A DNA stretch of 14,855 bases. Origin: a virus. The stretch is taken from UHGV virus genome UHGV-1735138; one strand, written 5' to 3'. Below the pieces are notes generated by a model. The model saw only the letters and a program-made list of their open reading frames with translations, was not told where the DNA came from and ran no database searches. Within the stretch, counting starts at the first letter, position 1; each line of letters opens with the position of its first letter. Position numbers and translations under genes: made by a program. Positions 10,941 to 14,355 of this stretch are shown here, in pieces.

Positions 10941-11198
10941 ATGCAGACTCAATTAAAGGTTAAAGGCGGTTATAGTCATTTTTTCTTCGCCAATATTGAA
11001 GTCTCACAAAGAGAGACAAATGGCGGTTTGGTTGTCGTTAGGGATGTTAATATACCTATTACAACAACAACTCTCTCTCTGTTAGAGAATTACGCTGTAG
11101 GGCAGGTGTTGACGTTAGAACAAAAGAATGGCGATTTTTTTGATGTGTATTACGTTGGAACTGATGGGAATAACTTTCAGTTTTCAACGTACTGCTAA
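10941..11198 (+). CDS. Hypothetical protein (85 aa), AT-rich
   Basis: Good ribosome-binding site AAGGAG 6 nt upstream; noticeably AT-richer than the phage backbone. Confidence 0.5.
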   Translation: MQTQLKVKGGYSHFFFANIEVSQRETNGGLVVVRDVNIPITTTTLSLLENYAVGQVLTLEQKNGDFFDVYYVGTDGNNFQFSTYC

Positions 11199-11340
11199 TT
11201 TATCAAGGCCCTGTGAGCAGGGCCTTCGAAAGCCTACTAAAGTCTGTTTCATAGAGAGAGTTATTTGCGATTAAAAAGGTATTTGGTCACGACCAGCACG
11301 ATAGAGAATACATCTTTCAAAGTACCGCCCATATAAAACA
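11197..11340. repeat. Direct repeat A (about 140 bp, roughly 80 percent identical to repeat B)
   Basis: Aligns base-for-base with 14211-14355; contains a hairpin and a 23-codon minus-strand remnant (11261-11332, MGGTLKDVFSIVLVVTKYLFNRK) matching the C-terminus of the membrane protein at 14276. Confidence 0.75.
11205..11226. terminator. Strong hairpin (9-bp stem AAGGCCCTG/CAGGGCCTT, loop TGAG), putative bidirectional terminator
   Basis: Directly follows the stop of the 85-aa gene on the plus strand; flanking U-tract is weak. Confidence 0.45.
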
Positions 11341-11410
11341 GTTACATATGCACTTGATGACTAAGCTGGCACCAGGTTAACACCAGGCGCCAGCTTGAAG
11401 GAGACTTCAG

Positions 11411-12334
11411 TTATTGGTTTCTGAGGAAAGCGATTCTTGAAAGGGTCATTTGCGTCTGGCAGTCGACCATTTTCTTGACTTCAGCATCTGTTCCCTGCAT
11501 TGAAACTTTACCGCACATAGCATCCTTAGTTTTGATCCACTGGCGCTGAGAAGGCAGCAACTCTTTTTTCTTCGCCGGGGTTAACTTGCTCCAGACGGTA
11601 TTCAAATCAGAGTCAGCATTTGCAAATGCCATTCGGGACTGATCAAGGCTTTCAGATTTTTGCGGCTGAAGTTGTGCCTGCCTCTCTTTTTGCTTCTCCG
11701 CCTCATACCTGGCCTGTTCCTGTGCCCTGAGTTGCACCTGTTGTTCCGCTTCAATTTGACTCTGTTGGGCATCCTTAGCCTGCTGGATTTTCTGCTGCTC
11801 AACGATCGGGTTGATAATGGAAAGCGATGTCAGTAAAGCGGCGCCCACTGATATCGGATTATCAGAAGAGGTTTTTACAAAAACGTTTTTCTGATCGTCG
11901 GTCGCCTGCACGGTGTAGGTGATACGTTTTGAAAAGGCGTTTGCGTTGTTCTCCAAAAACAGATTTTCCATTTGCTTATCGAGATTACGATTAAAATTCT
12001 TTCTGTAAGCATCAGAAAGCTGGACGTACTCGTTCGCAGGTAGAGTCATCGTCACGGTCCCTTCACAAGTTTTCATTGTGCTGCCCGTGTCACTTGATGT
12101 TGTGGAGATTTCAGAGACGGCTAGTTTGATCTTGTCCAGTGTGCTTCGTTTGGTCTGATTAGTGACATCAGGGTATTTATCGACCTGTTCAGAGAGTCCT
12201 TCATAAGCAGATTTTTTTAATAAATCCATGAGAGCTGATTGGGTCATTTCCGAAGAACAACCGATCTCATCTTTTTTGTTATCACAGCCTGTAAGGGCAA
12301 TGGCGAGTAAGAGTACTGAGTATTTTAATCTCAT
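11411..12334 (-). CDS. Lipoprotein with C-terminal DUF1311-like (LprI-type lysozyme inhibitor) domain (307 aa)
   Basis: Signal peptide plus lipobox MRLKYSVLLLAIALTGC; Q/E-rich coiled-coil linker; C-terminal SQRQWIKTKDAMCGK...DCQTQMTLSRIAFL fits the DUF1311 pattern; opposite orientation to flanking phage genes. Confidence 0.7.
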   Translation of the reverse strand: MRLKYSVLLLAIALTGCDNKKDEIGCSSEMTQSALMDLLKKSAYEGLSEQVDKYPDVTNQTKRSTLDKIKLAVSEISTTSSDTGSTMKTCEGTVTMTLPANEYVQLSDAYRKNFNRNLDKQMENLFLENNANAFSKRITYTVQATDDQKNVFVKTSSDNPISVGAALLTSLSIINPIVEQQKIQQAKDAQQSQIEAEQQVQLRAQEQARYEAEKQKERQAQLQPQKSESLDQSRMAFANADSDLNTVWSKLTPAKKKELLPSQRQWIKTKDAMCGKVSMQGTDAEVKKMVDCQTQMTLSRIAFLRNQ

Positions 12335-13010
12335 GAATTCCCTTTAGAGTAAGGATTGGTTTTTAAGACGCGGTCTGTAATCAGTTCCGAGAGCTACAGT
12401 AAACAACGCTGAGCACTGAACGCATCACAGGCAAGGTAAAAGGTGATATCGGCAAAGGCTGTGAAACCTTTAATTCAACAGATGGGAACGGTATGCACAG
12501 GATCCTGTAACGACGCTCCCAAAACCGGAAACCTGCAGGGCATGTTTTCGCTGCTGAACTTAATATACGAACCTGCACTATCATGAACATATTTTATATC
12601 GTTATACTCCGAGTGATTGTGCCAGGCAATAGATAGTGTCCTAGAGGAATTATTTTTATTGTAAAAGGTAGGTGCTTAATTTCAGTGCGGAATTATTTAC
12701 TACTGTTAATAACCCTGGCTGTATATGGCACTGAGAAGACATTTATTCGCTTACTGAAGGGGGCGGTGAGCGAAAAGTGGCAGTTGAAGATAATCATGAA
12801 CGATCTATGACTCGATATTTACTTAATGCACTGTTATTCAGAGGGGTAAATAAAAAATATTATCTGTCACCTCAGCGCAATGCAATCTAAGGTCTCAAAG
12901 CCGCCCTTTGCATACACCGTAAGTTTAAAAATGTGAAGTGGGTTTATTTTACATATTTTCTAATATATTATTATGTATTTCCTTAAATAAATCATATTGC
13001 TGAGGATAGA

Positions 13011-14030
13011 ATGTCCAATATTAATTTGTTCGAAGATGTAGTGTCTTTAGAAAAACAACATCCAATGTATATAATGATGAAAGAAGAACGCTACAAACCG
13101 GAGAGAGAAGTAATCAATCAATGGGCAGAAGGATTTCAAGATCGAGACAATAAGTTTGCTAAAGAATTTCAAACAAGTTTTGAACCTTGTCTATGGGAAT
13201 TATATCTTTTTGCTTATCTGAAAGAATTAGGCTTAAGGTGCGATTTTTCATACGACGCTCCTGACTTCATTGTCAATGATCCAGAATTTTGCATTGAGGC
13301 AACTATTGCACTTCCAGCACAAGGAGACCTTGGTGCGCATGGTTTCAGAATGGAAGATATGCCGAGAGATTTTAATAAATTTAATTCTGAAGCATCTATT
13401 CGACTTAGTAATAGCTTTATATCAAAGGTTAAAAAATTAAGATCGAGATATTCTCTACTTCCTCAATGTAAAGAAAAACCTTTTGTAATCGCCATAGCTT
13501 CATTCGACAGACCTTTTGCACACTTTGCTGCAGCTAGGCCCATACTTGCAACATTATATGGTCTATATTATGATGAAGAGGCAACCATTGAATCAGGGGC
13601 AAAGAGTATAATTTCTTATAACGTCGATGCCGCAGTAAAAAAAGAAAATGTTAATATAGATATGGGGTTATTCTGTACACCTGCATATTCGGATGTAAGT
13701 GCTGTGATTTATAGTAGTTTAGCTACATGGGGAAAGGTAAGAGCCCTTGCGGACAACCCTTCAGCTTTCACGATTTATACATCATTTACTCCAAAGGAAA
13801 ATTCATTATATCCTGAAGTTCATCAAGCCACTAAAAGTGACTATGTAGAACACCTAGCGGATGGGTTATATATTTTACACAACCCATTTGCCAAGTATCC
13901 ACTGCCTAAAGATATACTAAGTCATCCAAGAATAGCGCAAGGTTATGTTGAGCCAGATGGATACGTTAATTTTATAGCGCCAGATGATTTTCTTTTATTG
14001 CGTTTTTTACAATCGTTAAATTTTAAATAG
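13011..14030 (+). CDS. Orphan hypothetical protein (339 aa), strongly AT-rich
   Basis: Long clean ORF with GAGGA ribosome-binding site; preceded by about 675 bp of AT-rich non-coding DNA; no TM segments; possible degenerate nuclease-like motif (APDFIV ... CIEAT) but no family recognised. Confidence 0.7.
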   Translation: MSNINLFEDVVSLEKQHPMYIMMKEERYKPEREVINQWAEGFQDRDNKFAKEFQTSFEPCLWELYLFAYLKELGLRCDFSYDAPDFIVNDPEFCIEATIALPAQGDLGAHGFRMEDMPRDFNKFNSEASIRLSNSFISKVKKLRSRYSLLPQCKEKPFVIAIASFDRPFAHFAAARPILATLYGLYYDEEATIESGAKSIISYNVDAAVKKENVNIDMGLFCTPAYSDVSAVIYSSLATWGKVRALADNPSAFTIYTSFTPKENSLYPEVHQATKSDYVEHLADGLYILHNPFAKYPLPKDILSHPRIAQGYVEPDGYVNFIAPDDFLLLRFLQSLNFK

Positions 14031-14210
14031 TAGTAATTATGGTCACATCTAACTACTTTACATAGATAACCCCAGAAAGAGCACTTTTCTTAAAACTCAG
14101 CTGTCAAAGATTTAGAGTGACTATCTACTGGCATGTTTCTGAATCTGCTAATGCAGCTGAGTGGATTTCTAGTGCTTTCTAGAAGATTTGGTTCATTAAA
14201 TCAGGTTTGT

Positions 14211-14355
14211 TAATTTATCAAGACCCTGCGACTAAGGTCTTCGAAAGTCGGCTAAAGTCTGTTTCACATAGAGAGTTACTTGCGTTTAAAAAGGTATTTT
14301 GTCACGACCAGCACGAGGCCGAATACCTCTGTCAAGGTACCACCCATGTACAACT
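14211..14355. repeat. Direct repeat B (partner of repeat A)
   Basis: Contains a weaker version of the repeat A hairpin (6-bp stem AAGACC/GGTCTT) with paired base changes, plus the 3' end of the membrane protein gene. Confidence 0.75.

Follow-up and report, generated by a model that had tools for sequence, protein, structure and literature searches.

The DNA studied here is a stretch of 14,855 nt of the virus genome UHGV-1735138 (the window), and within it the segment 10941-14355, which carries a gene of the anti-phage family PD-T7-5, a lipoprotein gene, a small open reading frame (ORF) and two copies of a direct repeat. A preliminary description, made from the letters alone, had presented this segment as an AT-rich block with three genes, and this holds in both respects: the GC content is 0.397 over 10941-14355 versus 0.50-0.51 in the backbone, and the 85-aa ORF, the reverse-oriented 307-aa lipoprotein gene and the 339-aa gene were all found. 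The fall in GC content is uneven and strongest in the PD-T7-5 cassette (0.351) and in the region of the 85-aa ORF (0.383), with 0.439 in the lipoprotein module. From left to right, the segment contains the following features.

10941-11198, plus strand: 85-aa ORF, a small protein gene and the occupant of slot 1 (see below), whose 3' ~140 nt lie within the putative ancestral duplicated junction
11193-11342: copy A of the direct repeat, consisting of a 69-nt spacer (11193-11261) and 81 nt (11262-11342) homologous to the 3' end of a 201-aa gene
11205-11226: hairpin in copy A, with a 9-bp GC-rich stem (AAGGCCCTG / TGAG loop / CAGGGCCTT) and no T tract
11261-11332, minus strand: remnant of the 201-aa gene, 23 codons (MGGTLKDVFSIVLVVTKYLFNRK) plus stop, matching the second transmembrane (TM) helix of its product
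11411-12334, minus strand: 307-aa LprI/DUF1311-family lipoprotein with lipobox LTGC and Asp at +2, a constant member of the region
12335-12773: non-coding DNA that precedes the lipoprotein gene and moves together with it, as judged from binned identities and junction coordinates
12774-14207: PD-T7-5 cassette, the DNA peculiar to this type of cargo, delimited by breakpoints against L001, L002, L005, L016, L022 and L026
13011-14030, plus strand: PD-T7-5, a 339-aa candidate single-gene anti-phage protein (PADLOC profile) with a predicted PD-(D/E)XK-type nuclease domain
14208-14357: copy B of the direct repeat, consisting of a degenerate spacer (14208-14276) and the genuine 3' end of the 201-aa gene (14277-14357)
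14276-14855, minus strand: 3' 193 codons of the 201-aa gene, which runs off the window (phrog_5346, E=5.7e-133)

Downstream of an integrase gene, the window carries in this order early genes, a cI-like repressor, a Cro/YdaS-like and a YdaT-like gene, a replication protein and a DnaB-type helicase. In contigs that match window 3011-14855 at 99.97% identity, the genes that come next encode an ImmA/IrrE peptidase, DUF1367, YbcO, antiterminator Q, holins and a lambda-type large terminase. Because the early genes of the window are thus followed by late genes in these nearly identical contigs, the window belongs to a lambda-like E. coli prophage, of which it forms the left arm, and the region under study has the replication genes on one side and the late-regulatory genes (ImmA / DUF1367 / YbcO / Q) on the other.

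Related prophages were compared at loci in complete E. coli genomes, namely those of the ST131 type (L001/L003), of LD91-1 (L002) and of ETEC1738 (L005), in an E. whittamii genome (L016), and in contigs that had been obtained by exact-protein look-ups (L007-L015, L019-L029). E. whittamii was the sole other species in a contig scan with the 201-aa protein. In these relatives, the alignments to the window break off at common positions: the left backbone ends at 10793, the right one resumes at or near 14208, and the backbone on both sides is common to the relatives at 92-100% identity. Two intervening positions hold other DNA in relatives, slot 1 (10794-11261) and slot 2 (~12774-14207), and the lipoprotein module that lies between them (11262 to ~12735-12773) is 96-100% identical in all relatives compared. 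The slots are occupied as follows.

Slot 2, window type: PD-T7-5
Slot 2, L022/L027: PD-T7-3, 455 aa (E=3.7e-165)
Slot 2, L002/L024: 186-aa protein, HNH protein and PD-T4-3 (E=5.7e-138)
Slot 2, L005: 196-aa protein and a DUF262/GmrSD_N protein matching NsnA (E=4.3e-41)
Slot 2, L016: T5orf172/MUG113 protein and a 134-aa ORF
Slot 2, ST131 type: 232-aa gene of unknown function
Slot 2, L026/L029: 266-aa gene of unknown function
Slot 1, window type: 85-aa ORF
Slot 1, several loci: ORF6N protein
Slot 1, L016: ORF6N protein and the candidate system PDC-M25A/B (E=8.5e-157 and 4e-96)

At least seven gene sets thus occur in slot 2 and at least three in slot 1 among the relatives, and the slots assort independently, because L009 and L010 combine ORF6N in slot 1 with PD-T7-5 in slot 2. 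The preliminary description had pictured one cargo cassette between the repeats, of a kind that may differ among related prophages and carry defence genes. The variability is real, as the same genes are not universal, and the expected defence genes are present as well, with PD-T7-5 in the window and PD-T7-3, PD-T4-3, the DUF262/NsnA-like protein and PDC-M25A/B in relatives, but the single cassette has to be given up, since the lipoprotein module is constant and only its two neighbours vary. The 85-aa ORF, which had been counted as a member of this cassette, is indeed present and AT-rich, but it lies outside the interval bracketed by the repeats and has its 3' end in the duplicated unit. The conserved flanks, the variable cargo and the recurrence of known defence systems together identify the region as an accessory-gene and defence hotspot of a lambda-like E. 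coli prophage family, and the uncharacterised occupants of slot 2 are, by their position, candidate defence genes.

These uncharacterised slot-2 genes are found at L001 7135-7833 (WP_000536231.1), L026 4692-5492, L002 7402-7962 and 8094-9329, and L005 7172-7762. WP_000536231.1, the 232-aa ST131 version, weakly matches a DRT-associated TM protein (E=1.8e-5). The slot-1 occupant of the window, the 85-aa ORF, gave no Pfam, PADLOC or PHROG match and has six representative homologues, among them proteins of the same length with 62% and 41% identity. ORF6N takes its place in L001, L002, L009, L010 and L026, and pseudogene remnants of the 85-aa ORF with in-frame stops are found in L001 and L016.

The 339-aa gene had been described as an orphan, which it is not. 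Its product matches the known PD-T7-5 over its full length, with residues 4-335 aligned to positions 1-340 of 346 of the PADLOC profile PDLC04110 (E=1.8e-102, 341 bits), and the second-best PADLOC profile, PD-T7-1, covers only the C-terminal part (E=5.7e-50). On its sequence, the gene is firmly assigned to the PD-T7-5 family. In this family, 719 relatives are detectable across Proteobacteria, and most of them bear the mistaken label ‘glycosaminoglycan attachment site’. PD-T7-5 belongs to the 21 systems that a functional selection on genomic libraries of E. coli brought out (Vassallo et al. 2022, Nat Microbiol); it was selected on T7, validated after recloning with 143 bp of native upstream DNA, and listed as ‘Nuclease’ (Vassallo 2022, Table S1), and a later review places it among the PD-(D/E)XK-domain systems. 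The gene in the window resembles the published one in the full-length profile match, the single-gene layout, the context of an E. coli mobile element and the predicted PD-(D/E)XK nuclease, and differs from it in that the published ORF coordinates span 1174 bp versus 1020 bp here, so that the annotated starts differ.

The predicted structure of the PD-T7-5 protein is a confident model, in which the N-terminal half has a restriction-endonuclease-like fold with many PD-(D/E)XK structure matches. E63, P84-D85-F86 and E96-A97-T98 are invariant in 39 aligned family members, and the lysine of the PD-(D/E)XK motif is replaced by threonine. A nuclease fold is thus supported, and a nuclease chemistry is inferred. 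Sequence searches with PD-T7-5 and with the lipoprotein profile against solved structures returned noise only.

The PD-T7-5 gene stands alone, with 676 bp of non-coding DNA upstream, 245 bp downstream and neighbours on the opposite strand, and a good Shine-Dalgarno sequence (GAGGA, 13002-13006) precedes it. It moves singly between contexts, prophage and chromosomal island. A DNA copy of window 12919/12985-14119 with ~85% identity, comprising the gene, 26-92 bp upstream and 89 bp downstream, is found in an unrelated degraded chromosomal island (L017, L018), beside an integrase fragment near ypjA; relative to the known setting of PD-T7-5, this copy stands out by its location in a non-prophage island. 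Proteins with more than 90% identity to the PD-T7-5 protein of the window are encoded in Morganella, Citrobacter, Yersinia ruckeri and Dickeya. Because of the island copy and these proteins of other genera, the cassette is an AT-rich, horizontally mobile one-gene unit. The exact protein of the window is recorded for 106 E. coli contigs and appears in 227 blocks of the contig collection, and every contig read with it shows the same prophage context.

The constant member of the region, the 307-aa lipoprotein, consists of an N-terminal alpha/beta domain, a long Q-rich helix and a C-terminal DUF1311 domain, and it belongs to the LprI/DUF1311 family by a PF07007 match above the Pfam threshold together with the DUF1311 fold. 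It has four non-lipid conserved cysteines (C26, C90, C274 and C292). Under the classical +2 rule, a lipoprotein with Asp at +2 stays in the inner membrane on its periplasmic side, and the protein is thus predicted to be inner-membrane-anchored and periplasmic. Since Citrobacter, Enterobacter, Pantoea, Yersinia and Proteus commonly have relatives with 45-90% identity, the phage gene looks like a captured bacterial gene. Its database name ‘lysozyme inhibitor’ should not be trusted. In M. tuberculosis LprI, lysozyme inhibition is carried by the MliC domain, and the Salmonella LprI-domain protein ScwA does not inhibit lysozyme and affects the peptidoglycan hydrolase MltD (PMC7933661); a Pfam scan (E<=0.1) detected no MliC domain (PF09864) in the 307-aa lipoprotein, and the similarly built ScwA is non-inhibitory. 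With both LprI and ScwA, the lipoprotein of the window shares the C-terminal PF07007 domain, the DUF1311 fold and the envelope location, and with ScwA also the four non-lipid cysteines. It differs from ScwA in being lipid-anchored, from LprI in lacking MliC, and from both in its long Q-rich helix and its prophage-borne gene. The protein is likely an envelope protein that binds or modulates a cell-wall-acting enzyme, and a role in superinfection exclusion or muramidase protection is a guess.

Conservation of the lipoprotein module extends beyond the coding sequence, as the module includes about 300-440 bp of upstream DNA. The ~300 bp from 12335 to 12640 are 95-100% conserved in most relatives, like the coding sequence itself, with one relative falling to 0.77-0.83 after ~12520, and conservation decays after 12640 to the left junction of slot 2 at 12735-12773. 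This stretch of ~300 bp contains no called gene and no Rfam match and shows no excess of RNA structure (z=-0.2). Its probable role is that of promoter/leader of the lipoprotein gene. In the Rfam scan of the whole window, a tRNA was the sole match. The hotspot is also a target of insertion sequence (IS) elements. In ETEC1738, an IS3-family element (L005 4385-5598) splits the lipoprotein gene at the equivalent of window ~11560, and in L023 an IS1 (4655-5352) lies directly beside it, beyond which a porin, the Dcm methylase and Vsr are encoded instead of the usual prophage genes; the prophage in L023 appears to be truncated.

The direct repeats of about 140 bp that the preliminary description had placed at 11197-11340 and 14211-14355 are real and were located to within 4 nt. 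Repeat finder and alignment define two gapless copies of 150 nt with 83% identity, A (11193-11342) and B (14208-14357), with E=6e-40 in a BLAST comparison whose search space was the size of the window. The spacer parts agree at 57 of 69 positions, the gene parts at 67 of 81, and the gene part corresponds to the last 26 codons plus stop of the minus-strand 201-aa gene. In the breakpoint alignments, the right backbone homology to relatives begins exactly at 14208. The hairpin that had been ascribed to each copy is convincing only in copy A, where the 9-bp stem lies between the convergent 85-aa ORF and lipoprotein gene and the hairpin region folds with a free energy of -20 kcal/mol (z=-1.6 versus shuffled sequences), but in copy B the stem is degenerate (z=+0.8). 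A terminator scan called neither copy, and no T tract is present on either strand. The element is present in 452 of 5426 complete E. coli genomes, with at most two copies per genome and always in this prophage family, so that the genome-wide terminator repeat considered in the preliminary description does not apply; a dispersed element or intrinsic terminator was rejected on this distribution, the missing T tract and the silent scan.

The 201-aa gene, to which the gene part of the repeat belongs, had been recognized as an intact membrane-protein gene ending at 14276. It is one, and it is not a 123-aa ORF, since its frame is open to 14854 in the window and encodes the full 201 aa in identical contigs, with a hydrophilic N-terminal region and two C-terminal TM helices according to hydropathy. 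The 23-codon remnant at 11261-11332 aligns, as had been proposed, to the C-terminus of this protein. It differs from the intact copy by five nonsynonymous and four synonymous codon changes, and in the equivalent remnants the frame is shifted (L016) or cut short by a premature stop (L005); from these changes, we judge it to be a decaying pseudogene fragment. Directly upstream of the 201-aa gene, outside the window, lies the gene of the 162-aa ImmA/IrrE (Peptidase_M78) protein, which matches the model of the CBASS regulator CapP (E=2.4e-25). The ImmA/IrrE and 201-aa pair (L007 11266-12369, L001 8296-9399) could also form an independent defence or regulatory module. For the prophage repressor (5913-6326), only helix-turn-helix (HTH) domains are recorded and no self-cleavage peptidase domain, and prophage induction may therefore depend on the ImmA/IrrE protease or the ORF6N protein.

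The junctions do not follow the repeats. Left junctions of slot 2 cluster at 12735-12773, and the right junctions depend on the cargo type, lying at 14208, 14245, 14276 or upstream of the 85-aa-ORF pseudogene. The repeats are therefore not the swap boundaries that the preliminary description had seen in them: the DNA specific to PD-T7-5 runs from 12774 to 14207, and other cargo types have their right junctions elsewhere. The ST131 type is informative with respect to the ancestral arrangement, because there the right copy is preceded by ~140 nt with in-frame stops that correspond by homology to window 11053-11192, the 3' end of the 85-aa ORF. The 85-aa fragment, the spacer and the 201-aa gene are contiguous in this type, from which it follows that the duplicated unit once comprised the whole convergent junction of 85-aa ORF, spacer and 201-aa gene. 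Its parts are distributed over the two sides of the lipoprotein-plus-slot-2 block as follows.

Window lineage: left, full 85-aa ORF, spacer and 81-nt remnant; right, spacer and intact 201-aa gene
ST131 type: left, 81-nt remnant only; right, 85-aa pseudogene, spacer with 10-nt deletion and intact gene
ETEC1738: left, as in the window; right, remnant with premature stop and no intact 201-aa gene
E. whittamii: left, 85-aa pseudogene and frameshifted remnant; right, intact gene
PD-T7-3 and PD-T4-3 types: left, single copy; right, none

Within a genome, the repeat copies are ~83% identical, and orthologous copies mostly share 90-100% identity, with ~80% in the most distant comparisons, from which it follows that the copies have not been homogenised. 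An interval without cargo between the repeats was not seen among the relatives examined, a synthetic empty-site query (85-aa ORF, spacer and 201-aa gene) retrieved no intact empty site from the 5426 E. coli genomes, and exact look-ups of the 85-aa ORF and lipoprotein proteins revealed no cassette-less context.

Taken as a whole, the locus is probably, and we hold this with good confidence, a defence hotspot in which PD-T7-5 protects the lysogen and the repeats are the scar of an old unequal recombination. The heterogeneous right junctions, the decaying remnants, the limit of two copies per genome and the lack of homogenisation all speak for a scar. In this explanation, the lysogen would express PD-T7-5, which would cut or bind the nucleic acid of an invading phage, and host and prophage alike would thereby be shielded against phages such as T7. 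The convergent junction consisting of the 85-aa ORF, the spacer/hairpin and the oppositely oriented 201-aa gene would have been duplicated by an old unequal (illegitimate) recombination, for which two diverged relatives are the simplest partners, and the lipoprotein-plus-slot-2 block would have ended up between the copies. Copy A would have kept the 85-aa gene together with the dead 81-nt end of the 201-aa gene, and copy B the live 201-aa gene, its 85-aa-ORF fragment being lost when the PD-T7-5 cassette arrived. Later cargo swaps would then have come about through recombination within the conserved flanks or close to them, and selection that preserves neighbouring genes would place the junctions near gene ends, at positions that differ with the cargo type. 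The order of these events, and an origin of the duplication between phages as opposed to in situ, are inferred from the present arrangements.

Several observations weigh against this explanation. Protection has been shown for the reference allele of PD-T7-5 (RRM82777.1, Vassallo 2022), which is not the allele of the window. In simple scans, neither a consensus sigma-70 promoter ahead of 13011 nor a terminator behind 14030 was seen, and independent expression of PD-T7-5 in the lysogen is therefore an assumption. The prophage copy of the window may itself be replication-defective, as a G-to-T change at 9388 in the helicase ORF (8146-9561) turns GAA into TAA (E415*) relative to the otherwise 99.97% identical contigs and shortens the 471-aa DnaB-type helicase to 414 aa. 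With respect to the scar, the supposed ancestral state, a convergent 85-aa ORF and 201-aa gene without the lipoprotein block, was not found in the 5426 E. coli genomes and the contigs read, and the second remnant of ETEC1738 ends at nearly the same point as copy A, which hints at repeated rearrangement involving the element.

How else could the two repeats have arisen, or be maintained? They could be active recombination substrates that bound a mobile cassette, gained and lost as a unit by RecA, a phage Red-type system or a site-specific recombinase. The direct orientation, 150 nt of homology around accessory genes and the presence of an element copy on both sides of the lipoprotein-plus-slot-2 block in most architectures would suit such a cassette, but an empty site is lacking in the 5426 complete genomes and the contigs read, the lipoprotein module is invariant, and the boundaries of the variable part (12735-12773 on the left; 14208, 14245 and 14276 on the right) miss the repeat ends. 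As, in addition, the copies are only 83% identical without homogenisation, the interval has no recombinase gene and L002, L022 and L024 have a single copy, this alternative is very unlikely. An att-like or integron-like site-specific exchange was rejected, there being no fixed site at the cargo boundaries and no recombinase in the interval. A duplication in situ, in tandem within one phage genome, with subsequent divergence of the copies to 83%, would fit the old age of an arrangement that has both copies together in E. coli and E. whittamii prophages; slow divergence is compatible with all data. However, with orthologues mostly at 90-100% and paralogues at ~83% identity, the duplication would have to far predate the spread of the whole family, and the left-remnant alleles, which are 86-91% identical to the intact gene, suggest recombination among lineages. 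We regard this origin as unlikely, though with an appreciable chance.

The remaining alternatives ascribe a present function to the repeat. It might be kept by selection as a bidirectional terminator or an RNA-stabilising hairpin for convergent genes, and indeed both copies lie between convergent genes, copy A has a strong GC-rich stem, and one difference is compensatory, with a G-C pair in copy A and an A-T pair in copy B. Against such a role stand the missing T tract on both strands and the silent terminator scan, the marginal structure of copy A and that of copy B, which is no better than shuffled sequence, the absence of the spacer on the left in ORF6N-type relatives and on the right in L026, and its 10-nt deletion in L001 and L016. 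Moreover, more than half of the repeat is a coding remnant that a terminator does not need, and we give this function a small chance only. It is extremely unlikely that the 23-codon remnant encodes a functional small membrane peptide, such as a toxin-like mini-protein. The remnant of the window still has an ATG and an open frame that ends at the original stop codon, but its equivalents are broken in L016 and L005 as described, nonsynonymous changes are as frequent as synonymous ones, no recognisable ribosome-binding site lies upstream, and the hydrophobic stretch is too short to span the membrane alone. An old recombination scar therefore remains our preferred explanation of the repeats.

The cargo gene of the window is an already-known defence system, the phenomenon is a familiar one, and the repeat is not mechanistically new. 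AT-rich genes between conserved phage genes, with a promoter and a terminator of their own, are known as the morons of lambdoid phages from the work of Hendrix, Juhala and colleagues. The present locus shares with them the AT-rich acquired genes, the junctions at gene ends and the partial gene remnants left behind, and it differs from a classical moron in that the simple scans gave neither promoter nor terminator. The defence hotspots of P2 and P4 combine conserved flanking phage genes with variable, defence-rich cargo, where a slot usually holds one or two systems (Rousset et al. 2022; Vassallo et al. 2022). Conserved flanks with variable, defence-rich cargo at a fixed position are common to those prophage and satellite hotspots and the one described here, whereas here the phage is lambda-like, the position is between the replication and the ImmA/nin/Q genes, and a constant lipoprotein separates two slots. 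A limited literature search found no description of this particular hotspot. BstA (Owen et al. 2021, PMC8585504) is reported to be a single-gene defence of lambdoid/P22-like prophages that is expressed in the lysogen and protects it against other phages. The PD-T7-5 locus is of the same type, a prophage-borne single-gene defence system, with an unrelated protein at another genome position and no self-immunity element identified here.

A wider reading would combine these points into an undescribed two-slot defence hotspot of this prophage family, the copy resident in ST131 included, around a constant envelope lipoprotein: at least one uncharacterised occupant would be a new anti-phage system, the lipoprotein would serve superinfection exclusion or the protection of the envelope, and relatives would exchange cargo through the homology of the duplicated junction. 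That all of this applies together is possible yet doubtful, and we put it forward tentatively. Candidates for the new system would be WP_000536231.1, the 266-aa gene of L026/L029, the 186-aa and 196-aa genes and the 85-aa ORF. With this locus, a further hotspot is mapped that follows the known pattern of E. coli anti-phage genes being carried mainly by prophages, and three systems from one functional screen (PD-T7-5, PD-T7-3 and PD-T4-3) share a position in one lambda-like prophage family. By guilt of location, the unknown slot genes, especially that of ST131, are cheap and well-motivated defence candidates, and those in ST131 bear on phage therapy against this pandemic clone. The repeat illustrates clearly how, in mosaic phage genomes, an old recombination event can be recognised by the partial gene duplication that it leaves.

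The prophage family has no sequenced phage representative in the phage collection that was searched, as neither 10400-14855 nor the backbone (megablast) nor the lipoprotein (tblastn) had a match there. Outside the hotspot, the following features of the window bear on its context and on the targeting of the family by CRISPR systems, in which PAM denotes the protospacer-adjacent motif.

14-103, plus strand: tRNA-Ser(CGA) (ARAGORN; Rfam tRNA, 57 bits)
189-1217, minus strand: integrase ORF, adjoining tRNA-Ser(CGA)
5913-6326, minus strand: cI-like HTH repressor, 137 aa
12303-12334, plus strand: protospacer 1, matched 32/32 by an E. coli type I-E spacer, PAM ATG at 12300-12302, at the first codons of the lipoprotein gene
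14294-14325, plus strand: protospacer 2, matched 32/32 by an E. coli type I-E spacer, PAM AAG at 14291-14293, at the end of the 201-aa gene in copy B

The tRNA-Ser(CGA) is the probable attachment site of the prophage. Relatives of the ST131 type share the backbone only from window ~1428 onward and therefore have a different integrase module, so that the relatives at the same tRNA-Ser site, to which the preliminary description had looked for comparison, are only a part of the prophage family.

Spacer 1 occurs in 119 and spacer 2 in 6 of the 5426 E. coli genomes, the source arrays being L004 1506-1537 and L006 1208-1239, and copy A of the repeat differs from protospacer 2 at 5 positions. Both PAMs, ATG and AAG, are of a functional type. 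At least five further matches of 100% connect CRISPR-annotated features of other E. coli with ~1475-1505, 3915-3947, 4088-4121, 5890-5925 and 9458-9490 of the window, and some arrays hold two of the five backbone-matching spacers. Going by these at least seven exact spacers, the whole prophage family, beyond its cargo, is a recurrent CRISPR target, which means that E. coli lineages with type I-E arrays have met it as foreign DNA. Spacer 1 and its target occur together in at most one genome versus ~10 expected, with most targets in one clone, ST131; this near-exclusion was rejected as evidence of immunity, as it is confounded by that clonality.

A further observation concerns a motif of ~20 nt, GAGGAAAGACC[A/G]ATG on the coding strand, which is found directly at 1427-1452, 4602-4627 and 5034-5059 and inverted at 7146-7170. 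Several early genes on both strands have it at their start codon (ORF starts 1432, 4606 and 7168), and by its sequence and placement it looks like a conserved ribosome-binding/initiation cassette.

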